64,000 nucleotides of DNA, from assembly GCA_000996205.1 (NCBI GenBank), contig LBYO01000005.1:1728-65727 (forward strand). The letters run 5' to 3'. The notes beneath the pieces are model-generated. The model searched no databases. It was not told the DNA's origin and saw nothing but the letters and a program-made list of their open reading frames with translations. The number at the start of each line of letters is the position of its first letter. The stretch's first letter is position 1. Shown here piece by piece: positions 3,323 to 64,000 of this stretch. The stretch comes from Parcubacteria group bacterium GW2011_GWA1_40_21 (GTDB lineage: Bacteria; Patescibacteriota; Minisyncoccia; Phycocordibacterales; GWA1-40-21). The translations under genes and the position numbers were made by a program.

Positions 3323-4564
3323 ATGCTAAATAATTTCTTGTCATTCATTTCTAATAATCTGCCGGATTTGGAAAGAATAGTTTTGGATACTTTAATCTCG
3401 TATTCGCCGATATGGCTTCCAATACTGCTTATAATTATCGGTTGGAAATTATGGGTGAGGTATATTAGAGCGCTTTTTTGGAGCAAGCAGAAGCGAATAC
3501 TTTTGGAAATCAAGTTGCCGAAAGAGATTACCAAATCGCCACTCGCAATGGAAACATTTCTAATAGGATTGCATCAGACCGGCCGCGAAGGGACATGGTA
3601 TGCCAAATTCTGGGAAGGGAAGACGAGGCCGTGGTTTTCTTTGGAAATGGTTTCCACAGAAGGAGTCGTGCGATTTTTCATCTGGACTGAAGCGTCTTTT
3701 AAAAACATAATTGAAGCGCAACTTTACGCTCAATATCCGACGGTGGAAATTTACGAAGCGCCGGATTATACCGAAGGAGTATTTTTTGACAAAGATAAAA
3801 TAGGGCTTATGGGCACAAACTTTGAATTCAGTAAATCTAGCGCTTACCCAATAAAAACTTATGTTGATTATGGGTTGGATAAAGCAGACACGAAGGAGGA
3901 ATACAAGACTGACCCGATTACGCCGATAATTGAATTTTTGGGTTCAATGGGGAAAGGCGAACAAGCTTGGATTCAAATCTTGATAAGAGCCCATAAGAAA
4001 GAGCAGATTAAGAAAGGGACATGGTTTGAAAAGGCAGATACTTGGCAGGACGAAGCCAAAGAGGAGATTGAGAAAATCAGGAAAGAAGCTACTCCAGAAA
4101 CTGAATCTGACTACCCCGCCTTTCCTAATCCGACCAAAGGTCAGATTGAGAAGATTGCCGCCATTGAAAAAAATGTTTCCAAGCTCGGATTTGATTGCGG
4201 CATTCGTATTATTTATCTTGCCGAGAAAAATAAATTTAATAAGGGTATGAGTGCCGCTATGACTGGCATTACCAGACAGTTTCATTCCAATAATTTAAAC
4301 AGTTTTAAATCCTACGGAATAACATTTTTTGATTATCCGTGGCAGGATTACAAAAGTATAAGGGTTAACAAGAAAAAAAAGAAAATGCTCAATGCTTACA
4401 AATTACGCTCCTATTTTTATCCGCCCTATCAGAAAAAATGGTTTGTGATAAATACGGAAGGGCTCGCTTCAATTTTCCACTTGCCCGGAAGTGTCGCGCA
4501 GACACCATCATTCGCGAGAATTGTTTCCAAGAAAGCCGAACCTCCGTCAAATTTGCCTATTTAG
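3323..4564 (+). CDS. hypothetical membrane-anchored protein
   Basis: N-terminal TM helix (PIWLPILLIIIGWKLWV) then large soluble domain; no confident family assignment. Confidence 0.4.
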   Translation: MLNNFLSFISNNLPDLERIVLDTLISYSPIWLPILLIIIGWKLWVRYIRALFWSKQKRILLEIKLPKEITKSPLAMETFLIGLHQTGREGTWYAKFWEGKTRPWFSLEMVSTEGVVRFFIWTEASFKNIIEAQLYAQYPTVEIYEAPDYTEGVFFDKDKIGLMGTNFEFSKSSAYPIKTYVDYGLDKADTKEEYKTDPITPIIEFLGSMGKGEQAWIQILIRAHKKEQIKKGTWFEKADTWQDEAKEEIEKIRKEATPETESDYPAFPNPTKGQIEKIAAIEKNVSKLGFDCGIRIIYLAEKNKFNKGMSAAMTGITRQFHSNNLNSFKSYGITFFDYPWQDYKSIRVNKKKKKMLNAYKLRSYFYPPYQKKWFVINTEGLASIFHLPGSVAQTPSFARIVSKKAEPPSNLPI

Positions 4565-8184: not shown

Positions 8185-9018
8185 ATGCCTAAGAAGGATG
8201 CTTTAATAATCAAGTCTACCGGAGAGAAGGAACTGTTTGACGTCAGAAAATTGGAAGCGTCCCTCGCGAGAGCGGGAGCATCTGAAAGCAGTGTAAGTCT
8301 GATAGCGGAACACATACTTAAAGAAGTGAGAGATGGCATGAGTACGGGAGAAATCTACACTCATGCCTTTTCTCTTTTGCGCCGATACGAAAAACCGGCG
8401 GCTCTTAAATATTCGGTGAGAAGAGCGGTGATGGAATTGGGACCCTCAGGTTTTCCATTTGAAAAATTTATCGCCGATCTTTTCAAGGCCAGAGGGTTTA
8501 AAGCGGAGACCAATCTTTTGGCGAGAGGGAAGTGCGTGGAACACGAAATTGATGTGATGGCTTGGAACGATGTGAAATTGATCATAGCCGAGGCCAAATT
8601 CCACAACGATAACGGCCTTAAATCCGATCTCAAGGTGGCGCTTTATGTCAAAGCGCGCTTTGACGATTTAAAAGAGACTCTTTTCAGCCCGGATGGCAAT
8701 AAAAGAAAATTTGACGAAGCCTATCTCATAACAAACACCAAATTCACTTCTCACGCGATTGATTACGCCAAATGCAGCGGGCTCGCTCTCATTGGTTGGA
8801 ATTATCCGAACACCGGCAATCTTCACAATATGATTGAAGATTTTAATCTTCATCCGATTACCGCCCTGACTGCTCTTAGCGGTTCCGAGAAACGAGATCT
8901 GCTCTCGCAAGGAATCGTGCTTAGCAAACAAATTTCCGACAGAAACATTCTGAAAGGCGTCGGCATAAAAGATGCCAGAATTGACGCGATTCTTCAGGAA
9001 ATAAAAGAACTTTTTTAA
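8185..9018 (+). CDS. ATP-cone domain fused to Mrr-like restriction-endonuclease-fold domain
   Basis: N-terminal ATP-cone pattern (IIKSTGEKELFDVRKLEASL...); central FEKFIADLFKARGFKAE...HEIDVMAW...AEAKFH resembles the PD-(D/E)XK Mrr catalytic core. Confidence 0.6.
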   Translation: MPKKDALIIKSTGEKELFDVRKLEASLARAGASESSVSLIAEHILKEVRDGMSTGEIYTHAFSLLRRYEKPAALKYSVRRAVMELGPSGFPFEKFIADLFKARGFKAETNLLARGKCVEHEIDVMAWNDVKLIIAEAKFHNDNGLKSDLKVALYVKARFDDLKETLFSPDGNKRKFDEAYLITNTKFTSHAIDYAKCSGLALIGWNYPNTGNLHNMIEDFNLHPITALTALSGSEKRDLLSQGIVLSKQISDRNILKGVGIKDARIDAILQEIKELF

Positions 9019-9040
9019 TCTTTCATTTTCGAAAAATTTT

Positions 9041-9078
9041 CAACATCCGATGTCCAAATATTTGGACATCGGATGTTG
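9041..9078. repeat. REP-like palindrome dimer flanking the RAYT gene
   Basis: caacatccgatgtccaaatatttggacatcggatgttg is a perfect 38-bp self-complementary sequence. Confidence 0.8.
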
Positions 9079-9107
9079 AAAAATAAGTCATCGTAAAATG
9101 TAAATTC

Positions 9108-9809
9108 TTATTCAAGGGTGAAACCGTTGAAATCACTGGAGCTGAAATTTTTTAGTTCTTGATAAACCGAATTTTTATAACCTGATTCTCCGCCGAAATA
9201 ATCAAGAAAAAAATCTCTTTGAGTAACCGACGGAAAATTCTTTTTGCCCAGATAATCAAGATGACTGCTCCATCGGTATGATTCAAGAAATTTGATAGCG
9301 GAGTTGAGATTTTTAATACTTCGCTCTCTCCACTCCGGTGCATGAAGATCAAGAGGGTTAAAATGGATGTAGTATGGCATAAAAAGAAAATGACGATCTT
9401 CCGTGATTTGTATTGACTTGTATTTTCCTTGAAACAGAGCTCCGACGCGTTCATATTTTTCATTGAAATATTTTGAGTAGCCCATATTGAGTTTCTTCAT
9501 AAATAAAGAAACGCCTTTTTCATTTATCGGAGAAATTAATAGGTGATAATGATTCGGCATCATGCTAAAAGCATGAATTTTCACTAAGCATTTTCTAGGT
9601 CTTGGTGATTTTGTTTTCTCAATCTTTGGACATTCGATGTCCAAAGATTGATTGTAAGATTGGCAAAAACGGTAATTATTCGCATAAACATTATTTTCAT
9701 CATTGAATTCAAATAAATCGTGAACAAAGCGAAAATGATCTTCTTCATCTTGAAAGATTGTCCTTTTGTCAACGCCCCTGTTGAGTATGTGATATAGTCC
9801 TAATTCCAT
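9108..9809 (-). mobile_element. REP-associated tyrosine transposase (RAYT) / IS200-like HuH Y1 transposase
   Basis: HuH motif MPNHYHLLIS and a Y1-transposase-like C-terminus; flanked on both sides by 'ttggacatcggatgtccaa' palindromes. Confidence 0.75.
9624..9646. repeat. REP-like palindrome copy inside the RAYT coding sequence
   Basis: ctttggacattcgatgtccaaag; in frame it encodes SLDIECPKIE. Confidence 0.6.
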
Positions 9810-9829
9810 TTAATAAAAACATTATAATA

Positions 9830-9852
9830 CTTTGGACATCCGATGTCCAAAT
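9830..9852. repeat. REP-like palindrome upstream of RAYT
   Basis: tttggacatccgatgtccaaat. Confidence 0.8.
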
Positions 9853-9891
9853 ATTTTGTTTAAAAAGATAATTTTGTGATAACATTGTGGA

Positions 9892-10698
9892 ATGTCGCAA
9901 TATTACAATTCAAAGAGGACCAGAAATCTATTCAGTCCGGAATCACAAGAGCCGTTCAAATTGAGTCGTTCAAAGATTGACCTTTTTATTGAGTGTCCGA
10001 GATGTTTTTATCTGGACCGGCGGCTTGGGGTGGGAAGGCCTCCCGGCTTTCCTTTCACTTTAAACAGCGCGGTGGACTTTTTGCTAAAGAAAGAATTTGA
10101 CATTCACAGAAAACATAAAACTACCCATCCTTTAATGGAAAAATACGGAATAGATGCTGTCCCAATCCAGCATCATGATATGGAAATGTGGAGAGATAAT
10201 TTTGTCGGCATTCAACATCTTCATAAGCCGAGTAATTTTATAATTACTGGCGCGATTGACGATCTTTGGGTGAATAAAAAAGGCGAAGTTATTATCGTTG
10301 ATTACAAAGCGACGAGCAAAGACGAAGAGGTTAATCTTGATGCCGAGTGGCAAGACGGTTATAAGCGGCAGATGGAAGTCTATCAATGGCTTTTCAAGCA
10401 AAACGGATTCACGGTTTCTCCGACGGGATATTTCGTTTACGCCAACGGGCGAAAAGACAAAGAAGCCTTTGATGGAAAACTTGAATTTGAAGTGAGTATA
10501 ATAGCTTATAAAGGGAAAACTGATTGGGTGGAAGGCGTGCTTATTGACGCCCAAAAAACCTTGACCGGCGATTCAATTCCTAAAATAGGAGAGAGGTGTG
10601 ATTATTGCCCTTATCGCAACTCGGCGGGGGAGGCGCTCGCAAAAATAGTAAAAGGAGCAAAAGCGAATTTGAAAACCGAGCCGACATTGTTTAGTTGA
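9892..10698 (+). CDS. PD-(D/E)XK nuclease, Cas4-like, with Cys-rich Fe-S signature (solitary, no CRISPR)
   Basis: N-terminal CPRC, catalytic-core-like D...IVDYK, C-terminal GERCDYCPYRNSAGE cysteines as in Cas4/DUF83. Confidence 0.6.
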   Translation: MSQYYNSKRTRNLFSPESQEPFKLSRSKIDLFIECPRCFYLDRRLGVGRPPGFPFTLNSAVDFLLKKEFDIHRKHKTTHPLMEKYGIDAVPIQHHDMEMWRDNFVGIQHLHKPSNFIITGAIDDLWVNKKGEVIIVDYKATSKDEEVNLDAEWQDGYKRQMEVYQWLFKQNGFTVSPTGYFVYANGRKDKEAFDGKLEFEVSIIAYKGKTDWVEGVLIDAQKTLTGDSIPKIGERCDYCPYRNSAGEALAKIVKGAKANLKTEPTLFS

Positions 10699-30310: not shown

Positions 30311-31507
30311 ATGTCGCTATTTTCATTTTTCAATAAGAAAAGCGAAGAAGTTTCCGCTGTCTTTCACATAGGGAGCGGGAGCGTGGATGCGCATCTCGTC
30401 AGATTTTCTAAAGTATCAAAACCGGAAATAATTTACGCGACAAAAGCCCCCATATCATTTCAGAAGAATATTGATTTGGAAAGATATTTCAAGCTTATGG
30501 TCAAAGCGTTTGATTCCGCACTTCAGGACATTCAGAAGCGCGGGCTGCTCCATTTGAATTTCACCGGTTTGAGAAATCACAGGATAAGCAATGCTTTCTA
30601 TGTATTATGTTCGCCGTGGTGCGTATCGCAGACTAAAATAATAAAAATAAAAAAAGATAAGCCTTTTGAAATAACCGTCGATTTGATTGAAGGCGTAATA
30701 AATGAACAAGAGAGGAAGTTTTTATCGGATGATTCGGTTAAAGGCTCAAAGATAATTGAAAAGAAAATAATTGACGCGAAATTAAACGGCTATAGAACGG
30801 CGGAAATCTTCGGCAAAAAAGCTAAAGATGCTGAGCTTGCTTTTTTTATGACTTCAGCACCGGAATATGTGCTGAAAGAATTGAATTATGTTGCGCGCAA
30901 GTATTTCAATTTTCACATCTCGGATTTCCATTCATTCGCTATCTCTGCTTTTTCTGCAATCCGGGAAATATATTCCGACAAAGAAAATTTCATATTTATT
31001 GATACTCACGGGGAATTAACGGACTTGTCAATAATAAAAGACAATATTTTCGCGGAGAGCGTTTCTTTTCCGGTGGGGGAAAATTTTTTTGTGCGGCAGA
31101 CGTCTAAAGACCTCCTCCTTTCAGGCGATGAATCCTGCTCTCTCATAAATTTGCATATTAACGGCAAATGCGACAGCGTGACCTCGCAAAAAGTTCAAGC
31201 GACTATGGATAAATCGCTTAAAATTTGGTTGGAAAAATTCCATTCTGTTTTGACTTCTCTTTCACTCAATATGTATGTTCCAAGAACAATTTTTATTATG
31301 ACAGATAATGAGTTTAGCGAATTTCTGGCTAAAAAATTAAAAGAAGAAAAGTTCAGCCAGTTTTCAATGACAGAAGAATCTTTTAATGTTATAGTATTAA
31401 ATAATAAAAGCCTCTGCGAATACTGCCTGTCAGACAAGGAGATTGAGAAAGAACCATTCGCGGAACTGGAATGTGTATTCTTGAACAAGATATTTAACAC
31501 AAAATAA
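30311..31507 (+). CDS. actin-like ATPase fold protein (PilM/FtsA-like)
   Basis: N-terminal phosphate-1-like VFHIGSGSVDAHLV and later IDTHGELTDLSII resemble PilM/FtsA ATPase motifs. Confidence 0.4.
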   Translation: MSLFSFFNKKSEEVSAVFHIGSGSVDAHLVRFSKVSKPEIIYATKAPISFQKNIDLERYFKLMVKAFDSALQDIQKRGLLHLNFTGLRNHRISNAFYVLCSPWCVSQTKIIKIKKDKPFEITVDLIEGVINEQERKFLSDDSVKGSKIIEKKIIDAKLNGYRTAEIFGKKAKDAELAFFMTSAPEYVLKELNYVARKYFNFHISDFHSFAISAFSAIREIYSDKENFIFIDTHGELTDLSIIKDNIFAESVSFPVGENFFVRQTSKDLLLSGDESCSLINLHINGKCDSVTSQKVQATMDKSLKIWLEKFHSVLTSLSLNMYVPRTIFIMTDNEFSEFLAKKLKEEKFSQFSMTEESFNVIVLNNKSLCEYCLSDKEIEKEPFAELECVFLNKIFNTK

Positions 31508-31508
31508 A

Positions 31509-32852
31509 ATGGCAAAAAACATCATACAAGACGTAGTGGTAAACAACAGAAGATCCATTAGGCAAGTATCCATTGAAAGAAGAAGGCGTCCGACGCAGAG
31601 CAAGGCGAGGAAAATGGAAGCGAATGAGTTTGAAGAAAAAAAGAAAGCGGAGCCGGCGAGTCAGGAAACGCAGAAGGAAATAAAAAAAAGAAATGCTCCA
31701 AAGATGATAATTTGGACAATAGCATTGTTATCCATAATTTTTTTGCTGTTTTCAGTAACATCTTTCTTTTCAACGGCGACAGTGACCGTAATTCCCAAGA
31801 CTGCCCGCATTGCGTTCAACGACACTTACATAGCCAAAAAGAATGCTCTTCCCGGCGAACTCCGATACGAGGTGATGACTCTGCAGAAAAAAATGTCAAA
31901 ACAGCTTGAAGCGACGGAAACGGAAAATCTTAAGATTAAGGCGAGCGGGAAAATCGTGGTATACAATAATTTCAGCGAGGCGACTCAAAGGCTTATCATA
32001 AACACCAGATTTGAATCCGAAGAAGGTCTGATTTATAAAATACCCAAATCAATCATTGTGCCCGGCATCAAGCTGGTTGGAGGCAAGAAGGTTCCGGGAA
32101 GCGTTGAAACACTCATCTTCGCGGATGAGCCCGGTGAAAAATACAATATGAAAGTTTCAGATCTCAAGGGAGATTTTAAAATCGCGGGTTTCAGGGGCGG
32201 CAAAAAATACAACTTTTTCTACGCGCGACTCAAGACTGACATAGCGGGAGGTTCAAGCGGTTTGGTTAAAAAAGTGCCGGCGAAAATATTGGACGAAGCC
32301 AGAAAAGAATTAAGGGCCGATATCAAATCCGAACTTCTTAAAGAAGCTTATGCCATCAAACCCCAATCTTCCGTCCTTCTTGCTGACGCTTATTATTATT
32401 CAGATTACGCTTCTTTGCCTGACAAGTTTCTGGGCGCTGATAAAATTGAAATCAATGAAAATGCCGCTTTCCACGGAATAATTTTTGACGAAGCCGAATT
32501 AAACTCTTATGTGGTAAAAAATAAACTTCCTGATTATGACGGCGTGCCTGTCAATTTGGTTTTAGATGACAATACCGGCGTCAGCTTGTCCGACAATTCC
32601 AGCGCGAAACCCCCTTGGGAAGGCGATTCGTTGAGTCTTTCTTTGAAAGGCGGAGCGGATGTCATTTGGACTTATGACGAGGCTCTCTTGCAGAAAAGTC
32701 TCGCCGGTCAGCGAAAGAGCGATTTAAATCGCATCATATCGTCTTTTCTCGGAATCGCGGAAGTGCGCGCTCAAGTAAGGCCTTATTGGAAAAGATCTTT
32801 TCCAAGCAAGCCGGAAAAAATAAAAATTGAAAATTTCAGCGTCAAAAAATAA
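31509..32852 (+). CDS. membrane-anchored hypothetical protein (possible partner of upstream PilM-like gene)
   Basis: basic N-terminus, single TM (IIWTIALLSIIFLLFSV), large extracytoplasmic domain; start overlaps the upstream stop. Confidence 0.4.
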   Translation: MAKNIIQDVVVNNRRSIRQVSIERRRRPTQSKARKMEANEFEEKKKAEPASQETQKEIKKRNAPKMIIWTIALLSIIFLLFSVTSFFSTATVTVIPKTARIAFNDTYIAKKNALPGELRYEVMTLQKKMSKQLEATETENLKIKASGKIVVYNNFSEATQRLIINTRFESEEGLIYKIPKSIIVPGIKLVGGKKVPGSVETLIFADEPGEKYNMKVSDLKGDFKIAGFRGGKKYNFFYARLKTDIAGGSSGLVKKVPAKILDEARKELRADIKSELLKEAYAIKPQSSVLLADAYYYSDYASLPDKFLGADKIEINENAAFHGIIFDEAELNSYVVKNKLPDYDGVPVNLVLDDNTGVSLSDNSSAKPPWEGDSLSLSLKGGADVIWTYDEALLQKSLAGQRKSDLNRIISSFLGIAEVRAQVRPYWKRSFPSKPEKIKIENFSVKK

Positions 32853-41627: not shown

Positions 41628-42518
41628 ATGGCAAAGACACTCGCGGCATTCAACAAAATTAATACATTAAGGGAAAGATACTATAAAGCATCTACCGGCA
41701 AGGATGCTCTTATTAAGCTCATTAGCGAAGCGGAAGTTGCCGAACAGGTATACAACTCAAATGCTATTGAAAATAGCACGCTTACTCTCGAAGAGACCGA
41801 AAAAATACTTCTCCAAATTGACTTGGATAGGTTTATTAGCGAGCGGGAAATATTTGAAGCGAAGAATTTAGCGCGCGTAACATCGTATATAGATAAACGA
41901 GCAAAAGAACAAGAACTGAACCTTGATGTAATTTTATCACTTCATAAAATGCTTATTTCAAGTATTCGTGATGATATTGCCGGTAGATTTAGAAAGACCG
42001 GGGAATATGTGCGGGTTGGAAGTCATATTGCTCCAAAATCGGAAGAAGTAATACCGCGACTGGAGAAAATTCTTGCGGAGTATAACGCAAGCAGTCACGA
42101 AAACATTATAAAACGTATTGCTAAACTGCATCTTGCATTTGAGCACACACATCCTTTCTGTGACGGAAATGGCCGTATTGGGCGCGCACTGAATAATTAT
42201 TTACTTATACGAGATGGATATGTGCCAATAAATATAAAATTCATTGATAGAGAAAAGTATTACGACGCATTTAAGGAATTTGATGAGAAAGACAAAACTG
42301 AAATTATGGAAGAGATTGTCGCAAAGTCGCTTACAAATAGTTATCACAAAAGATTAGCGTATTTAGAAGGCAAGAAAATCATGACACTTGTCGATTATGC
42401 GAAAGAAAATAAGTTATCACATTCTAATTTGATAAATAAGGCGACACGCCAAACCATTGAAGCCTTCCTGGAAAAAAATGTTTGGAAAATTGGCATCGAC
42501 AATCACAAAGAAAAATAA
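41628..42518 (+). CDS. Fic/Doc (Fido) family protein
   Basis: canonical Fic motif HPFCDGNGRIGR. Confidence 0.9.
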   Translation: MAKTLAAFNKINTLRERYYKASTGKDALIKLISEAEVAEQVYNSNAIENSTLTLEETEKILLQIDLDRFISEREIFEAKNLARVTSYIDKRAKEQELNLDVILSLHKMLISSIRDDIAGRFRKTGEYVRVGSHIAPKSEEVIPRLEKILAEYNASSHENIIKRIAKLHLAFEHTHPFCDGNGRIGRALNNYLLIRDGYVPINIKFIDREKYYDAFKEFDEKDKTEIMEEIVAKSLTNSYHKRLAYLEGKKIMTLVDYAKENKLSHSNLINKATRQTIEAFLEKNVWKIGIDNHKEK

Positions 42519-42520
42519 TT

Positions 42521-43660
42521 ATGGCAAACAGTAATCTTACAAACGCAAAAAGAGCAAAGAATGACGAGTTTTATACTCAGTTCGGCGATATTCAAAAAGA
42601 GATTGAAGCGTATTTGGAATACAACCCCAATGTATTTCGTGGCAAGGTTGTGTATTGCAATTGCGACGATCCGTTTGAGAGTAATTTTTTTCGCTATTTT
42701 GTGCTCAATTTCAACAAACTTGGATTGAAACAGCTTATCACCACGAGCTATAAGCCCTCGCCTGTCGCCAACACGCAACTGGGATTGTTTGGCGATGATA
42801 AAACTCTCACAAAATCAAAAAGCCTGCCTGCCGGTAGGCAGGGCCGTCCTAAGGTAAACGCCAACAAATTTATTGTGAGCGATGTGCGCGACATAGACGG
42901 CGACGGCGAGTTCAACTTAAGGGATGTCGCCAAGCAGTTAAGGGCAAACAAACACAACGAATGGACGCCACTTGAAGGCGACGGCGACTTCCGTAGCGAT
43001 GAATGTATAAATTTGCTAAAACAATTCGACATCGTCGTAACAAATCCGCCGTTCAGTCTATTCCGCGAATATGTTAAGCAACTTTTTGATAATAACAAGA
43101 AGTTTGTGATTATCGGTAATATGAACGCTATTACTTATAAAGAAATATTTCCCTTGATAAAGGAAAATAAAATGTGGCTTGGTAATGGCTTTCACGCTGG
43201 CAATGCTTATTTTTCCACCCCTCTAGCTAAAGAATACGGGGAGGGAGTTTATATGCCAGAAACCGGTTTAGTAAAATTTAGAAATATTTGTTGGTTTACT
43301 AACTTAGACCATGGGCGCCGTCATCAACCATTACCGCTTATGACAATGAAAGAAAATTTGAAATACAGCAAACACAAAGAAATTAAGGGCAAAAAGTCGT
43401 ATGATAAATATGACAATTACGATGCCATAGAAGTTTCATTTACTGATGCAATTCCAAGTGATTATGATGGTGTAATGGGCGTGCCGATTAGTTTTTTGGA
43501 TAAATACAATCCTGATCAGTTTGAGATTATTGGAATGGCAGAAGATAACGGCAAGGGTTTTTCGGGTGGAATTTGGGACGGCAAAAATCCGCATTGTGTC
43601 ATAAATGGAGAGAATAAATTTAAGAGAATTTTTATTAAGCATAAGAAAGTTGGGGAATAA
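42521..43660 (+). CDS. N6-adenine DNA methyltransferase, M.EcoRI-like
   Basis: N-terminal KNDEFYTQFGDIQKEIEAYL and VVYCNCDDPFESNFFRYF recall the M.EcoRI N-terminus; catalytic FDIVVTNPPFS (NPPF). Confidence 0.6.
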   Translation: MANSNLTNAKRAKNDEFYTQFGDIQKEIEAYLEYNPNVFRGKVVYCNCDDPFESNFFRYFVLNFNKLGLKQLITTSYKPSPVANTQLGLFGDDKTLTKSKSLPAGRQGRPKVNANKFIVSDVRDIDGDGEFNLRDVAKQLRANKHNEWTPLEGDGDFRSDECINLLKQFDIVVTNPPFSLFREYVKQLFDNNKKFVIIGNMNAITYKEIFPLIKENKMWLGNGFHAGNAYFSTPLAKEYGEGVYMPETGLVKFRNICWFTNLDHGRRHQPLPLMTMKENLKYSKHKEIKGKKSYDKYDNYDAIEVSFTDAIPSDYDGVMGVPISFLDKYNPDQFEIIGMAEDNGKGFSGGIWDGKNPHCVINGENKFKRIFIKHKKVGE

Positions 43661-43670
43661 AAATGAATTT

Positions 43671-44390
43671 ATGCAAAAAGAAATTAAAAAATATATTAAA
43701 TATATTGAAAAAAACTTATTATATATAAGTTTAATAATTTTATTTATCCTACTTTTTTCATATGTATTTTCTAGTTGTTTTAGATTTGTTCTATATTTCT
43801 TAAATATTGAACCCAATTTTCTAGTTGTTTTTATTACTGCGATTACTTTAATATTTTCGGCTATAGAGAATAAAAAAGAAAGAAAATATAATTTTAATTT
43901 AAATTTAAAAAACTCAGTAGAAGAAAAAGCAGCTATTGTTATAGGAAAATTATTTATAATGATGAATGATTCTCAAAATTATTTACAGACAATAAAGGAT
44001 ATAAAAAATGCAATAGAAAAAAATAAAAAGTTTGTTGATATGAATAATGTTTTATCCTTAGATCTTCTTAAAAAAGACAGAGAACTTGTTGGATCATATA
44101 TAGTAATTTATTTTTCTCAGTATATTCAAAATGATTGGAATTTAATGGTGGATAAAATTAATAAAATTGGAACAAATTGTTCAATGGCAATGACTAATTA
44201 TAACGAAAATTATAATCTTATTAATACGGCTGGTTTTGAAAATGAAACATTGTCTAATATAGATAATACGATAAAAGAATCAGAAATTTTAAATGAAGAG
44301 ATTTATGAATTAACAGAAAAAATGAAAAATACATTATTATCTATTATTGTAGAAAATAATAATAAAATGAAAGAAAAATATATAAATTAA
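43671..44390 (+). CDS. hypothetical membrane protein encoded by an extremely AT-rich segment
   Basis: ORF 43605..44390 trimmed to its second Met; two TM helices, then a Lys/Asn/Ile-rich domain; local GC far below the window average. Confidence 0.35.
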   Translation: MQKEIKKYIKYIEKNLLYISLIILFILLFSYVFSSCFRFVLYFLNIEPNFLVVFITAITLIFSAIENKKERKYNFNLNLKNSVEEKAAIVIGKLFIMMNDSQNYLQTIKDIKNAIEKNKKFVDMNNVLSLDLLKKDRELVGSYIVIYFSQYIQNDWNLMVDKINKIGTNCSMAMTNYNENYNLINTAGFENETLSNIDNTIKESEILNEEIYELTEKMKNTLLSIIVENNNKMKEKYIN

Positions 44391-44396
44391 AATAGT

Positions 44397-45401
44397 ATGA
44401 CAAATATCAATAATTCCGGTGAGATAATTATTTATGAAGGCGCGGATGGGGCGACTAGGATTGAGGTGCGTGTTGAGGGTGAGACCGTTTGGCTTACTAT
44501 TGATCAAATATCGAAACTTTTCAATAAGAGCCGTTCTACGGTTAACGAGCATATTTTGAATATTTATGCCGAAAAAGAGCTAAATGAAGCTGAGTCTGTG
44601 AGAAAAATCGGAAATTCCGATTTTTCTACCAAACCGACCAATTTTTATAATTTGGATGTTATTATTTCCGTCGGTTATCGCGTGAAATCCATACAGGGCA
44701 CAAAGTTCCGTCAATGGGCGACTGCCAGAATCAGTGAATACCTTATTCAAGGATTCACTATGAATGATGAATTTTTGAAAAACAATGGTGGCGGCTTATA
44801 TTGGAAGAAACTCTTGTCTCGCATTCGTGATATTCGATCTAGCGAAAAGATGTTGTATCGGCAAGTTTTAGATCTCTATGCCACAAGCGCGGATTATAAT
44901 CCAAAATCTTTACATTCAATTAAGTTTTTCAAAATTGTGCAAAACAAATTGCACTATGCTGCGCATAAAGAAACGGCAGCAGAAGTTATTTACAATCGCG
45001 CTAATAGCGATAAAGAATTTATGGGTTTGACGGTTTTTGAGGGAGATTTACCTGTGTTAGAAGAAGTGAGAATTGCTAAAAATTATTTGTCCGCGCGAGA
45101 GCTAGAAAAATTAAACAGGCTTGTCTCGGCATATTTTGAGTTGGCAGAATTGCGCGCTATGGATCAGCAAATAATGCATATGGCAGATCATATTGCATCT
45201 TTAGATAAATTACTTTTTGATTACGGCGAAGGAGTTTTAACTGACGCTGGAAAAGTAACACATAAAAAAGCCATAGAAAAAGCAGAAAATGAGTATAAAA
45301 AATTTCAAGCTAAAACACTCTCTCCTGTTGAAAAATCATATTTGGAAAATATTAAGTTATTAGAGAAAAAAGTAGAGAAAAAAATAAAAGATAAAAATTA
45401 A
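44397..45401 (+). CDS. RhuM-family (virulence protein RhuM / Fic-DOC-associated) protein
   Basis: [16 protein letters not shown]...[22 protein letters not shown]...[23 protein letters not shown] matches the RhuM family. Confidence 0.8.
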
Positions 45402-45415
45402 TTAAAAATAAAATT

Positions 45416-46585
45416 ATGAAAACAATTTTAAAAACCGGCATCACTGTCAAAGATATTTGTGAAGGGTTCGTCTATAACGAACTGGAGGGCAAGGGGCTAT
45501 TTGGTTTGTCTGGCAAGCTCACCATTCAGCCGGAGTATCAGCGCAACTATATCTATGCCTCCGACGGCGGGAAAAGAGAGATGGCTGTTATTGAATCAAT
45601 ACTCAAAGGTTACCCAATAGGCTTGATCTATTTTAATAAGGTTTCTGAAAACAATCTGGAGGTCTTGGACGGGCAACAACGGATCACCAGTGTTGGACGT
45701 TTTGTGACTGACAAATTTGCTATCAAAGACGAAAACGGCATGGAGCAATATTTTGGCGGTATAGCAAAAGACAAGCAAGTCAAGATTTTGGAAACGAAAC
45801 TGCTCATTTATGAATGCGAAGGCACAGAAAGCCAGATAAAAGAGTGGTTTAGGACTATCAATATAGCTGGAGTTCCGCTCGTCCCACAGGAATTGTTAAA
45901 TGCGATCTATTCCGGACCATTTGTTACTCTAGGTAAAGAGGAGTTCAGCAACAGCCAAAATGCCAATATTCAAAAATGGAGCGCGTACATAAAGGGCAGC
46001 GCAAACCGACAGGCATTTTTTGAGAGAGCTTTAGACTGGGCGAGTAAGGGAGATATTGATGATTACATGAGTCTTCATCGCAACGACAAAAATATCAATG
46101 AGTTAAAAAATTATTTCAACAGTGTGATTGATTGGATCTCTAGTGTATTTACCGGTGTAGAAAGCGAGATGTGCGGACTTGAGTGGGGACGACTGTATGC
46201 GGAGTATCACAAGAAAGCTTATGATCCTGCTAAAGTGTCAGATGAGGTTAGTAAACTGTATGGCGATCCATATATCAAAAACCGCAAAGGTATCTTTGAA
46301 TTTATTCTAGGTGGTTCTGTTGATACAAGATTACTTGAGGTTAGATTTTTTGATGAAGCAACTAAAAAAGCGGTTTATACAACACAAACCGCTAAAGCAG
46401 AGAAAAAAGGTGAATCAAACTGTCCGCATTGTGCCATTGGACATGATGCCAACAAAGAAAAAATTTGGAGTCTAGGCGAAATGGATGCCGACCATGTAAC
46501 GGCTTGGAGCAAGGGCGGCACAACCTCGGCTAAAAATTGTGAGATGTTGTGCAAGACGCACAACCGAGCAAAAGGAAATCGGTAA
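45416..46585 (+). CDS. GmrSD-like type IV restriction enzyme (DUF262 ParB-like NTPase/nickase domain + C-terminal HNH nuclease)
   Basis: DUF262 signature DGQQR; C-terminal CPHC...DADHV...N..LC..HN HNH motif. Confidence 0.75.
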
Positions 46586-61350: not shown

Positions 61351-61434
61351 TGCGTAGGTGGCAGAGCGGTCAATTGCATCAGACTGTAAATCTGACGCCC
61401 TATGGGCTACGGGGGTTCAAATCCCTCCCTACGC
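61351..61434 (+). tRNA. tRNA-Tyr (anticodon GTA), long variable arm, no encoded CCA
   Basis: acceptor gcgtagg/cctacgc, anticodon stem-loop cagac-tGTAaa-tctg (G-U closing), variable arm cgccctatgggctac, T-arm gggggttcaaatccctcc. Confidence 0.8.
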
Positions 61435-61724
61435 ACAGCGAGTCTTCGAGTTGGGCAGGAAGAAGCGCGGGGCGCTTCTGTGAGGGATTTGAAGCCCGAT
61501 TGAGCCGAGCTTGGAGTGTCTTCACGAACAAGCGAGCCAATCGGGGTACTGAACGAGTAGCGTTCAAATCCCTCCCTACGCACTAAGAAAAAATGCCAGA
61601 TTCTTTATCTGGTATTTTTTGTTAGTCGCGGAGGGATTTGAAGGTCGGAGCGCGACGGCGCGAGACGGGGTCGCGGGATTTTTCAGCAGAAAAATACCCG
61701 TGACCAAATCCCTCCCTACGCACC
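61435..61724 (+). repeat. tRNA-Tyr-associated modular elements: two tandem units, each = inverted T-arm copy ... direct copy of tRNA-Tyr 3' end; unit 2 has the GC-rich core shared with the tRNA-Leu element
   Basis: gagggatttgaag (61491, 61631), ttcaaatccctccctacgca direct copies at 61564 and 61704 (the latter followed by cca), core cggagcgcgacggcgcgagacggggtcgcg 61645..61674, hairpin ttttcagcagaaaa. Confidence 0.75.
61587..61620 (+). terminator. rho-independent terminator inside the tRNA-Tyr element array
   Basis: gccagat tcttt atctggt followed by attttttg. Confidence 0.6.
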
Positions 61725-61824
61725 ACTTCGCTTTGTTTTCACAAAGCTACTCGGTGCAAGCACAAAATTGAGTCCCCGAAATTTCGGGCGTAAAAAAACA
61801 TTCCTGATGGAATGTTAAGTTTAA

Positions 61825-61915
61825 TATGGCAGGCAAATGGTAGAGAGTTGATTAGGAGAAAAACCCTCGTTTCTTGAATCCGTTTTGGCGTATCGGTAAA
61901 CCATCTGCCTGCCAT
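61825..61915. repeat. 18-bp inverted repeat pair flanking a 55-nt spacer
   Basis: atatggcaggcaaatggt ... accatctgcctgccatat (one mismatch). Confidence 0.5.
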
Positions 61916-62060
61916 ATTATATAACTATATCGAACATTATTCTGTTTTTATTATATTGGTATGCGGCAATAAGTCAAAAACAATAGGCTTTAAACGACAT
62001 GCTAGTTGAATTGATTGAGTAGTGTTTTCTTTTTATCTTTTTTTGCTATTATGCTTTTGT

Positions 62061-64000
62061 ATGAATATGAAACATAAAGCAAAAATTTTTCATTTTGTCG
62101 GATATGAATTTGATGTAAATGCCAGAAAAATATTTTTCAAATATCGCATAGAATTTTATAATCAACATTCTTTAAATTTTACCGAAACGATTATTTTTCC
62201 GAATCACCCAAAAAAATTAAAAGAAGAATCAATCCAAAAAATTCTTGAATCTTTGCTTATTGTTTTGGGTATTAGTTATTACAAATTATATTGCCCTCCG
62301 CGAGTGACAATGCCTTTCAGGCTTTCACGAGAACAAGCGGATTTCTGGAATACCGTTTATAGAAAAGGACTTGGAGAATTTTTATACAGGAACAAACTTG
62401 ACCCAAAGCGATTGGCAAAATTTTCATACTCCAACATTAAAATTTATCCGGATAGAATTAAAACTCAAGACCGCGCCCTTTTGGGAATTGGCGGGGGCAA
62501 AGATTCAATTGTGGCCGCAGAATTATTGAAAGATTTTGACATAGTTTCTTTCTTGGTTGAGACGCAAAAGCAAGATCTAATTTCTGACAGTGTTATTGAT
62601 AAAATCGGCAGACCGTCTTTGAAAATAAGAAGGGTGCTTGATCTTAAAATATTTGAAAAACACGATGGGGCGTATAACGGACATATTCCAATCTCGGCAA
62701 TTTTTGCGTTTTTGGGACTTCTCACGGCAGCTATTTATGAATACAAATATGTGATTGTCGCAAATGAACACAGCAGTAATTTTGGCAACTTGCAGTATAA
62801 AGGAGAAATCATAAATCATCAGTGGAGCAAGTCTGTTGAGTTTGAGTCGCTGTTTCAAGAATATACAAGGAAATTCATTACGCCGGACATAGTCTATTTT
62901 TCGCTACTTAGGCAGTTTTATGAAATCAGAATCGCGCGGATGTTCGTCGAACATAAAAAATACTTTCCGCTGTTTGCCAGTTGCAACAGAAACTTCAGAG
63001 TTTTCAAAGACCGTCCCGGCTCTCTGTGGTGCGGCGAGTGTCCAAAATGCGCCTTTGCTTTTTTGATGTTGGCCTCGTTTGTTGGCAAAAAAGAAGTCAT
63101 TGGCATATTTAAGAAAAATCTTTTTGCGGATAAATTACTTCTTCCCCTTTTCCAAGATTTGCTCGGGTTTGGAAAACTTAAGCCGTTTGATTGCGTTGGG
63201 ACATTTGAAGAATCGCAAACAGCCCTTTTTCTCGCTTCAAAAAAATTCAAAAATGAAATTATAATAAAAACTTTTTTACCAAAAATAAGGAATCCTGAAA
63301 AACTTATAGAACGGGTTTTTAAAACATATCCGGCACCGACAGTTCCGACACCTTTTCGTTTTCTCGGCATTAAGAATGTTTGTATTTTGGGTTACGGCAA
63401 AGAAGGCAAAATCACGGAAAAATATATCAAGAAAAACCATCCAAATTTAAAAATAGGCATTCTTGATCAAACCACGGATAAGAAATATCTTGAACGGCAG
63501 AAAAACTACGATTTGGCGATTAAAACACCCGGAATCGCCAAAGAAAAAGTTAAAATTCCCTATACTACCGCCACAAATATTTTCTTTTCTCAAAATAAAA
63601 ATTTCATTATAGGGGTCACCGGGAGCAAGGGAAAAAGCACGACAGCAAGCCTTATCTATGAAATTATTAAAGCTTCTGGTAAAAAAGTTCGTCTGATTGG
63701 CAACATTGGAAATCCGATGCTGGAAGTTCTTTTTACGAAAATTGATCCTAATGAGATTTTTGTCGCGGAGCTTTCCAGTTATATGCTGGACGACATAGAA
63801 TATTCTCCCAATATCGCTTTGCTTTTAAATCTTTTTCCTGACCATATGGATTATCACGGCGGAGTTGAAAATTATTACAAAGCCAAGAAAAACTTTTTTA
63901 AATTTCAGAAACAAGGAGATTTGGCCGTCAAACCGCCTTTTGATGAAAAAATTCCGCTTCAAAAAAGTGAAATTCCTTTGATTGGCGCTCACAACATTAA
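62061..64000 (+). CDS. murD: fusion protein (partial, runs off the window): N-terminal PP-loop ATPase domain (MurL-like?) + C-terminal UDP-N-acetylmuramoyl-L-alanine--glutamate ligase MurD
   Basis: own translation finds no stop from 62061 to the window end; PP-loop GIGGGKDS and CGECPKC in the N-terminal part; MurD motifs ILGYGKEG, GVTGSKGKSTTASL, GNIGNPMLE, ELSSYML, DHMDYHGG..NYY.AK in the C-terminal part; absent from the ORF track because no stop in window. Confidence 0.7.
   Translation, partial: MNMKHKAKIFHFVGYEFDVNARKIFFKYRIEFYNQHSLNFTETIIFPNHPKKLKEESIQKILESLLIVLGISYYKLYCPPRVTMPFRLSREQADFWNTVYRKGLGEFLYRNKLDPKRLAKFSYSNIKIYPDRIKTQDRALLGIGGGKDSIVAAELLKDFDIVSFLVETQKQDLISDSVIDKIGRPSLKIRRVLDLKIFEKHDGAYNGHIPISAIFAFLGLLTAAIYEYKYVIVANEHSSNFGNLQYKGEIINHQWSKSVEFESLFQEYTRKFITPDIVYFSLLRQFYEIRIARMFVEHKKYFPLFASCNRNFRVFKDRPGSLWCGECPKCAFAFLMLASFVGKKEVIGIFKKNLFADKLLLPLFQDLLGFGKLKPFDCVGTFEESQTALFLASKKFKNEIIIKTFLPKIRNPEKLIERVFKTYPAPTVPTPFRFLGIKNVCILGYGKEGKITEKYIKKNHPNLKIGILDQTTDKKYLERQKNYDLAIKTPGIAKEKVKIPYTTATNIFFSQNKNFIIGVTGSKGKSTTASLIYEIIKASGKKVRLIGNIGNPMLEVLFTKIDPNEIFVAELSSYMLDDIEYSPNIALLLNLFPDHMDYHGGVENYYKAKKNFFKFQKQGDLAVKPPFDEKIPLQKSEIPLIGAHNI

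Follow-up and report, generated by a model that had tools for sequence, protein, structure and literature searches.

A probable bifunctional MurL–MurD2 enzyme encoded at the edge of a Parcubacteria sequence window

Which enzyme is encoded by the long open reading frame (ORF) that runs off the end of a 64,000-nt stretch of DNA from Parcubacteria group bacterium GW2011_GWA1_40_21 (contig LBYO01000005.1, positions 1,728 to 65,727; the whole stretch is called the window here)? The original prediction saw in this frame a PP-loop domain joined to MurD and, possibly, a MurL–MurD2-type route in a single polypeptide. The MurL/MurD2 route dates in the literature from 2017 (summary in PMC8788868), and its published range comprises Xanthomonadales, a few Alphaproteobacteria and rare actinomycetes (PMC8788868). 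From the homology, domain architecture, PP-loop fold, signature residues and genomic context described below, we conclude that the ORF probably encodes a bifunctional MurL–MurD2 enzyme of the MurI-independent D-glutamate (D-Glu) route to peptidoglycan, derived from the fusion of adjacent murL and murD2 genes. We put the probability of this reading at about 0.78.

The open frame and its MurL half

The plus strand is free of stop codons from 62061 to 64000, and translation of the window yields 646 codons with MNMKHK as the first residues. A frame of more than 640 codons, unannotated and accompanied in the ORF list by spurious entries only, had been claimed for this region; both points hold, the list giving for 62061–64000 short minus-strand ORFs and one off-frame ORF. 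The region looked unannotated because the ORF lister by design passes over any ORF that is cut short by the end of its input sequence. The full ORF could be obtained from the database: the translation of 62061–64000 is an exact prefix of an 813-amino-acid (aa) protein, P0001, from a Parcubacteria metagenome-assembled genome (MAG). P0001 supplies the missing C-terminus, with the stop codon lying ~500 nt past the window end, and the window accordingly holds the 5′ 646 of 813 codons of the fused gene.

Two genes, often overlapping, encode MurL and MurD2 in most other lineages; a single indel could join them, and the long ORF might be taken for an artefact, either an assembly chimera or a frameshift that merges two genes. 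The identical 813-aa protein recurs, however, in groundwater metagenomes, where at least 8 independently assembled contigs encode it. Over 100 full-length homologues (811–861 aa, 63–88% identity) share the single-ORF architecture and the conserved linker region, and 24 of the 150 best protein clusters are fused in the same order. This recurrence establishes a real gene and no chance frame or assembly artefact; we reject the artefact explanation, whose probability is close to nil and which the independent assemblies refute in practice.

The N-terminal half, the MurL part (62061–63329; this and all further features of the fused gene lie on the plus strand), matches NCBIfam model NF041275 over aa 4–410 (model positions 4–413 of 447, E = 3.5e-101, 338.9 bits). 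This model of UDP-N-acetyl-alpha-D-muramoyl-L-alanyl-L-glutamate epimerase (‘MurL_Xanthmoales’) was built on Xanthomonadales and has an equivalog cut-off of 700 bits. Precomputed Pfam annotation of the identical protein gives MurL_N (PF26299), MurL_epimerase_C (PF26298) and then Mur_ligase_M; the local Pfam set did not contain the two MurL families, and there only Mur_ligase_M matched. The MurL part consists of an N-terminal beta/alpha domain (MurL_N), the PP-loop core and a helical C-terminal region (MurL_epimerase_C).

When 25 diverse MurLs, the window sequence among them, are aligned, G-G-K-D-S, N-H-Q-(W)-S-K, S-(C)-N, C-x2-C-x-K-C and K-P-(F)-x-C-x-G prove invariant or nearly so, and these columns are likewise invariant in 48 fused homologues. 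The PP-loop GIGGGKDS, conserved in the MurL alignments, occupies aa 142–149 (62484–62507), followed by the most conserved MurL motif, INHQWSKS (aa 251–258, 62811–62834), in which N-H-Q-(W)-S-K is invariant or nearly so. The cysteine set, invariant or at least 90% conserved, spans 62979–63050 and comprises C308 (SCNRNF) and C324, C327 and C330 (WCGECPKC); C378 (FDCVGT, 63186–63203) is also invariant in the MurL alignments. GIGGGKDS and CGECPKC (aa 324–330, 63030–63050) are the two motifs that the original prediction had pointed out. Judged from its matches to NF041275, MurL_N and MurL_epimerase_C, the N-terminal domain is MurL itself and no member of an unrelated PP-loop family, which decides the comparison between MurL and other PP-loop families that the original prediction had raised.

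Searched by sequence, the PDB offered no solved structure related to MurL, and the enzyme has been described as one that ‘lacks known conserved domains’ (PMC8788868, PMC5808125). The AlphaFold2 model of aa 1–430 has a mean predicted local distance difference test (pLDDT) score of 92.8 and a predicted template modelling (pTM) score of 0.91, and places GGGKDS (aa 144–149) after strand E136–142 and before helix 147–155. Foldseek against the PDB returned as top matches exclusively PP-loop ATP pyrophosphatases, with E values down to 2.4e-5 and probabilities of 0.96–1.0, namely TtuA, NcsA, QueC-like Cap9, argininosuccinate synthase, MnmA/TrmU, LarE, NAD synthetase and carbapenam synthetase. The superposable part is a core of ~180–200 residues, with template modelling (TM) scores of 0.2–0.3 (query-normalised) and at most 0.63 (Cap9-normalised). 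Going by the model, the MurL part is a member of the PP-loop ATP pyrophosphatase (adenine nucleotide alpha-hydrolase) superfamily. The original prediction had called the N-terminal part typical of such enzymes, and the invariant GGKDS and the uniform fold matches bear this out. GIGGGKDS would be the motif that binds the alpha-phosphate and pyrophosphate of adenosine triphosphate (ATP) for substrate adenylation.

Xanthomonas oryzae MurL consumes one ATP per turnover, forms adenosine monophosphate (AMP) and converts L to D in one direction only, and adenylation of the alpha-carboxylate has been proposed for it (PMC8788868, PMC5808125). The PP-loop fold therefore fits the published ATP-to-AMP stoichiometry. 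For the window MurL part we predict an ATP- and Mg-dependent, AMP-forming, one-way L-to-D epimerase activity, the modelled fold being consistent with AMP formation. The spacing C-x15-C-x2-C-x2-C suggests a putative metal (Zn or Fe–S) site formed by C308, C324, C327 and C330. By analogy, the invariant cysteines including C378 resemble the metal sites of Cys-rich PP-loop neighbours and may have a metal-binding or catalytic role. The PP-loop assignment adds a mechanistic framework for MurL, one that newer domain databases may already imply.

The ligase half and its specificity residues

A proline-rich linker, PAPTVPTPF (aa 424–432, 63330–63356), lies between the end of the MurL match at ~aa 410 and the start of the MurD match at aa 441. 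The N-terminal and central domains of the MurD2-type ligase occupy aa 441–646 in the window (63381–64000), and the ligase continues to aa 813. TIGR01087 (murD) matches aa 441–625 inside the window, and the full-length MurD part reaches 253.7 bits against a cut-off of 211.95, in agreement with the MurD assignment of the original prediction; Pfam Mur_ligase_M lies at aa 519–625, and the best PDB sequence matches of the C-terminal part are MurD structures. In the alignment to Escherichia coli MurD, the ATP-binding P-loop of Mur ligases, GVTGSKGKST, falls on aa 518–527 (63612–63641), with its lysine at the position of E. coli K115. The segment PDHMD (aa 593–597, 63837–63851) carries Asp594 at the position of E. 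coli D182 and X. oryzae MurD2 (XoMurD2) E197, and His595 at that of E. coli H183 (residue roles from PMC8788868). Database entries name these proteins ‘D-glutamate ligase’, ‘Mur ligase family protein’ or ‘hypothetical’, and one Joint Genome Institute annotation labels a homologue as the epimerase. In the existing annotation of the window gene, the MurD half gives the name and the MurL half is passed over.

Near the glutamate site, the residues of E. coli MurD and XoMurD2 are D182/E197, K348/R358, A414/P433 and L416/F435 (PMC8788868). In MurD2, E197D and R358K each alter stereospecificity and the double mutant E197D/R358K is a D-Glu ligase; E. coli MurD K319T gains acceptance of L-glutamate (L-Glu), and P433 and F435 by themselves did not change specificity (PMC8788868). 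We aligned 140 fused proteins to E. coli MurD, having established before alignment that the MurD crystal numbering equals the gene numbering minus one. The position of D182 is Glu in 114 and Asp in 26 proteins, and that of K319 is Ile, Leu, Val or Asn and never Lys. Arg replaces K348 in 140 of 140, Pro stands at A414 in 136, and the L416 position holds Tyr in 131 and Phe in 4. The window protein reads D-I-R-P-Y at D182, K319, K348, A414 and L416 (Asp594, Ile696, Arg723, Pro791 and Tyr793); only Asp594 (63840–63842) lies inside the window, and the other four residues are taken from P0001. This signature suggests a ligase of MurD2 type at four of the five diagnostic positions. The predicted MurL–MurD2-type route in one polypeptide is supported by this signature together with the NF041275 and PF26299/PF26298 matches; the specificity residues agree with it at these four positions but not at the fifth, where Asp is found.

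Several observations weigh against the bifunctional enzyme. (i) The MurL match of 338.9 bits is well under the NF041275 equivalog cut-off, and identity between the window MurL part and proteobacterial MurL is only about 35–40%; the model is clade-specific, and the low score therefore shows divergence and not exclusion from the MurL family. (ii) Asp594 takes the position of XoMurD2 Glu197, as in E. coli MurD, and because E197D alone alters stereospecificity (PMC8788868), the ligase may accept D-Glu as well. (iii) Candidatus Saccharimonas aalborgensis, a member of the candidate phyla radiation (CPR), is reported to have an active glutamate racemase, and CPR bacteria are therefore not uniform in their D-Glu supply. 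(iv) The function proposed for fused or CPR MurL–MurD2 proteins rests on homology.

The second and third of these observations would also suit a MurD part that is canonical or of dual specificity and uses mainly free D-Glu, supplied by MurI or a host, with MurL as a corrective or back-up enzyme for mis-added L-Glu. E. coli MurD has the same Asp, E197D alters MurD2 stereospecificity, and some CPR bacteria reportedly possess an active MurI. We consider this arrangement unlikely. The other four diagnostic positions are MurD2-type, including Arg at K348 and the loss of Lys319, and the 74 kb inspected showed no murI: ORFs of at least 230 aa in the 64-kb window are free of Asp/Glu racemase domains, as are the 10 kb downstream. 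Glu and Asp moreover alternate at the E197 position among relatives that are 85–87% identical and in which MurL is still fused and conserved, which argues for the same pathway with either residue. Asp is thus not a fixed clade feature, and it is also found in separate MurL-linked MurDs of CPR bacteria and Acidimicrobiales. Over 119 homologues the MurL part averages 67.9% identity and the MurD part 75.6%. Since both halves are conserved despite the Glu/Asp alternation, we read both residues as compatible with the pathway in this background. The alternation leaves room for relaxed specificity and might mark ligases that accept both L- and D-Glu.

Distribution, gene order and neighbourhood

We scanned one genome per species with the MurL alignment and obtained at least 600 MurL loci, all confirmed, with the pattern [IV]NHQ[WY]SKS. 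At least 600 species genomes thus carry the MurL/MurD2 route, and they come from Proteobacteria, Actinomycetota and Bacillota as well as from many CPR lineages. Gene order and signatures were analysed for the best 80 of these loci, which yielded 74 MurL-linked MurDs. Among the best 80 are loci from Rhodanobacter, Luteimonas, Dokdonella and Lysobacterales, members of the published MurL/MurD2 group, and from many Alphaproteobacteria. They further include Actinomycetota (Rugosimonospora, Acidimicrobiales, Solirubrobacteraceae), Bacillota (Holdemanella) and, within the CPR, Peribacteria, Peregrinibacteria, Gracilibacteria, Falkowbacteria, Saccharibacteria and Roizmanbacteria.

With few exceptions, the 74 MurL-linked MurDs follow [E/D]-[I/L/F]-R-P-[Y/F] at the five diagnostic positions. 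E-I-R-P-Y is widespread (39 MurDs), and E-I-R-P-F (12 MurDs) occurs at every Xanthomonadales locus except one (L040, EIRPY). D-I-R-P-Y (8 MurDs) is mostly from CPR genomes, fused and separate, and D-L-R-P-P (3 MurDs) is from Acidimicrobiales and one unclassified Actinomycetota MAG. E-I-R-P-F, the reading in Rhodanobacter, Luteimonas, Dokdonella and Lysobacterales, reproduces the published XoMurD2 residues E197, R358, P433 and F435 and can therefore be used as a positive control. The negative controls gave D-K-K-A-L for E. coli and Pseudomonas aeruginosa and T-K-R-A-W for Streptococcus agalactiae, with Lys319 and Ala414 kept. The canonical motif DSKATN is replaced by D[SA]ISTT in the MurL-linked ligases. 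Four loci (L063, L073, L081 and L082) in MAGs labelled Gammaproteobacteria or Bacillota encode MurL and MurD with the CPR-type DAISTT and score, for example, 359–378 and 392–404 bits against the CPR query, compared with ~240 and 160 bits for genuine proteobacterial loci; mis-binning of the contigs or wrong labels on the MAGs may be the reason.

A murD-like gene comes immediately after murL, on the same strand and often overlapping it, at ~70 of the 80 loci, those of Rhodanobacter and Luteimonas among them. The two genes form one ORF at 6 loci, from several CPR lineages, and their order is reversed at 2. Searched exhaustively with the MurL part, a set of 1.84 billion representative proteins gave 2,520 clusters (50% identity) at E ≤ 0.001; the best 150 comprise 125 stand-alone MurLs, 24 MurL–MurD fusions and one MurD–MurL fusion (P0241). 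In the window fusion murL precedes murD2, as is usual for the two genes. P0241 (878 aa), encoded on a 1.19-Mb contig, carries MurL at residues 457–841. The two reversed loci, L053 (2706–5344, Saccharibacteria MAG) and L062 (2643–5278, unclassified bacterium), have separate genes, murD then murL, and their MurDs show F in place of I at the K319 position. These reverse-order cases suggest more than one rearrangement or fusion event. In another protein, P0258 (699 aa), an N-terminal extension of ~240 aa with no assigned identity precedes MurL.

The neighbourhoods of related fusions place them at the MurD step. The fusion in L087, a Pacebacteria genome, is flanked by murE (498.6 bits against a cut-off of 373) and murC (388.1 bits against 335). 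L089, a Patescibacteria contig of 611 kb, carries it just downstream of mraY-ftsW-murG, and the place between mraY and ftsW where murD is normally found holds no separate murD gene. These gene orders bear on a further explanation, in which the PP-loop domain is a diverged MurL homologue with another outcome on the stem peptide, such as amidation of the glutamate alpha-carboxylate, in place of epimerisation. Such divergence would agree with the score of the MurL match relative to its cut-off and the 35–40% identity, PP-loop enzymes catalyse many adenylation-dependent reactions, and the catalytic residues of MurL are undefined in the literature (PMC8788868, PMC5808125). We regard this explanation as very improbable. 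All residues invariant across MurLs, Xanthomonadales-type relatives included, are kept in the window protein, and tight murL–murD2 coupling and the MurD2 signature are found alike in CPR and Xanthomonadales. In the L087 operon the next encoded enzyme is a standard D-Glu-recognising MurE equivalog, and no glutaminase or amidotransferase partner was seen in the inspected neighbourhoods of this lineage and its relatives L087–L089.

Beyond the identity of the enzyme, one may propose that in this lineage and much of Patescibacteria the fusion would be the sole MurD and the sole source of D-Glu, with no MurI and with direct hand-over of the intermediate, and that the route would span phyla and be no curiosity of Xanthomonadales and a few actinomycetes. 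We advance this wider claim tentatively and rate it at somewhat less than an even chance.

Just beyond the window, an alanine racemase gene (Ala_racemase_N, Ala_racemase_C; L001 12444–13571) starts 1 nt past the stop codon of the fusion, and the D-Glu and D-Ala supply steps are therefore adjacent in this lineage. No alanine racemase (alr) homologue was found within 4 kb of MurL at any of the 80 diverse loci, nor at the closer relatives L087–L089, and we rejected this linkage as a general MurL feature; it is local to the lineage.

The rest of the window encodes ordinary CPR housekeeping functions, including MurJ, YceG/MltG, AlaRS, RpoA, DnaK/DnaJ/GrpE and ClpB. Rfam matches in the intergenic region upstream of the fusion were limited to tRNA. 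Here, tRNA-Tyr(GTA) lies at 61352–61436, and its 22-nt 3′ end, GTTCAAATCCCTCCCTACGCAC, recurs twice after it, at 61562–61583 (100%) and 61702–61723 (91%), with a spacing of 147 and 140 nt (region 61352–61723). Each copy has a complementary partner, GAGGGATTTGAAG, upstream of it, and both repeat units form stable hairpins of long range (z = −3.6 and −7.8), the second unit opening with a terminator-like hairpin and a U-run. These repeats resemble those downstream of E. coli tyrT, each of which carries the tRNA-Tyr 3′ end; alternatively, they are possibly decayed integration (attachment, att) scars. A 20-bp near-perfect inverted repeat (61822–61919, 95% complementary, 58-nt loop) is located ~140 nt upstream of the fusion ATG. 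Its fold z-score is −4.3, no Rfam family scored above threshold, and it could be a regulatory hairpin, a terminator or the end of a mobile element.

Further upstream, 41628–46585 is a probable defence or restriction-modification island, with a G+C fraction of 0.34–0.35 at 42–46 kb. It encodes a Fic/DOC protein (41628–42518), an EcoRI-type adenine methyltransferase (42482–43660), a 261-aa ORF without Pfam match (43605–44390), a RhuM-family protein (44397–45401) and a GmrSD-like nuclease with HNH (45416–46585). A cluster of mobile or nuclease-type genes at 8185–10698 comprises an Mrr_cat restriction endonuclease-like protein (8185–9018), an IS200-like Y1 transposase (9108–9809, minus strand) and a PD-(D/E)XK nuclease (9892–10698). 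Three ORFs have no Pfam match at E ≤ 1e-5: 3323–4564 (413 aa) and the neighbouring, nearly abutting 30311–31507 (398 aa) and 31509–32852 (447 aa).

Proposed mechanism and comparison with known systems

The mechanism of the window fusion is modelled by homology on the characterised X. oryzae enzymes, from which its substrates, its stereochemistry and any channelling would follow. The C-terminal ligase half would add L-Glu to the cell-wall precursor. The N-terminal MurL part would then bind a second ATP at the PP-loop and adenylate the alpha-carboxylate of the terminal L-Glu, which would acidify the C-alpha proton; the MurL half would epimerise L-Glu to D-Glu, and AMP would eventually be released. 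The D-Glu product would be the substrate of MurE. The fusion would keep the two activities at 1:1 and may pass the L-Glu intermediate straight between the sites.

For annotation, this assignment implies L-Glu as the most likely substrate of the ligase half and an epimerase in the other half, and the current database names would call for correction. Cell-wall capacity would be mis-called in metabolic reconstructions of CPR bacteria that take murI as the marker of D-Glu supply. The published distribution of a handful of genera (PMC8788868) compares with hundreds of species in several phyla here, and the route is very common in CPR. Pathway inhibitors aimed at Xanthomonas and Stenotrophomonas would also reach a far wider set of bacteria. 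The PP-loop core and the invariant cysteine set provide a concrete, testable framework for the still unsolved MurL mechanism, and a naturally fused, small and well-conserved protein is a convenient object for structural and channelling studies. The searchable literature contains no mention of a fused MurL–MurD2 form, of its abundance in CPR or of MurL in CPR. Because the pathway is known and MurL domains are already recognised by domain databases, the fusion is an architectural variant and an extension of range and no new kind of system.

Compared with X. oryzae MurL and MurD2, the window fusion consists of the same two families in the same order, murL then murD2. Its MurL part likewise has the PP-loop and all MurL-invariant residues, and its MurD part matches XoMurD2 in the Arg (R358) and the Pro (P433), in an aromatic side chain at the F435 position and in having a hydrophobic residue where E. 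coli has Lys319. The presumed chemistry is also common to both, with ligation of L-Glu followed by ATP/AMP-dependent, one-way epimerisation. The window fusion differs in that it is one 813-aa polypeptide and not the product of two adjacent genes, has Asp and not Glu at the E197 position, and is directly followed by an alanine racemase. Its MurL part is only about 35–40% identical to proteobacterial MurL and scores below the clade-specific equivalog cut-off, and its Patescibacteria/CPR host lies outside the published distribution.

Canonical MurD (of E. coli, P. aeruginosa and S. agalactiae; PDB 1e0d, 8dp2 and 3lk7), which works with MurI, and the window MurD are both three-domain Mur ligases. 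The window MurD conserves the P-loop and the residues at E. coli N138, H183 and K198, passes TIGR01087 and belongs to a family that occupies the MurD step by murE, murC or mraY-ftsW-murG. In contrast to canonical MurD, it has Ile for Lys319 of DSKATN (DDAISTT), Pro for Ala414 and Tyr for Leu416; it also has Arg for Lys348, a residue that streptococcal MurD shares. The window MurD is furthermore fused to an epimerase that would be superfluous for a D-Glu-using ligase.

With the tRNA thiolases TtuA and NcsA and with QueC and Cap9, the MurL part has in common the Rossmann-like PP-loop core with its GGxDS motif, the C...CxxCxxC cysteine set and, presumably, AMP-forming substrate adenylation. Unlike these enzymes, it lacks significant sequence similarity to any solved structure, and it would act on a UDP-MurNAc dipeptide (MurNAc, N-acetylmuramic acid), catalysing epimerisation and not thiolation or nitrile formation.

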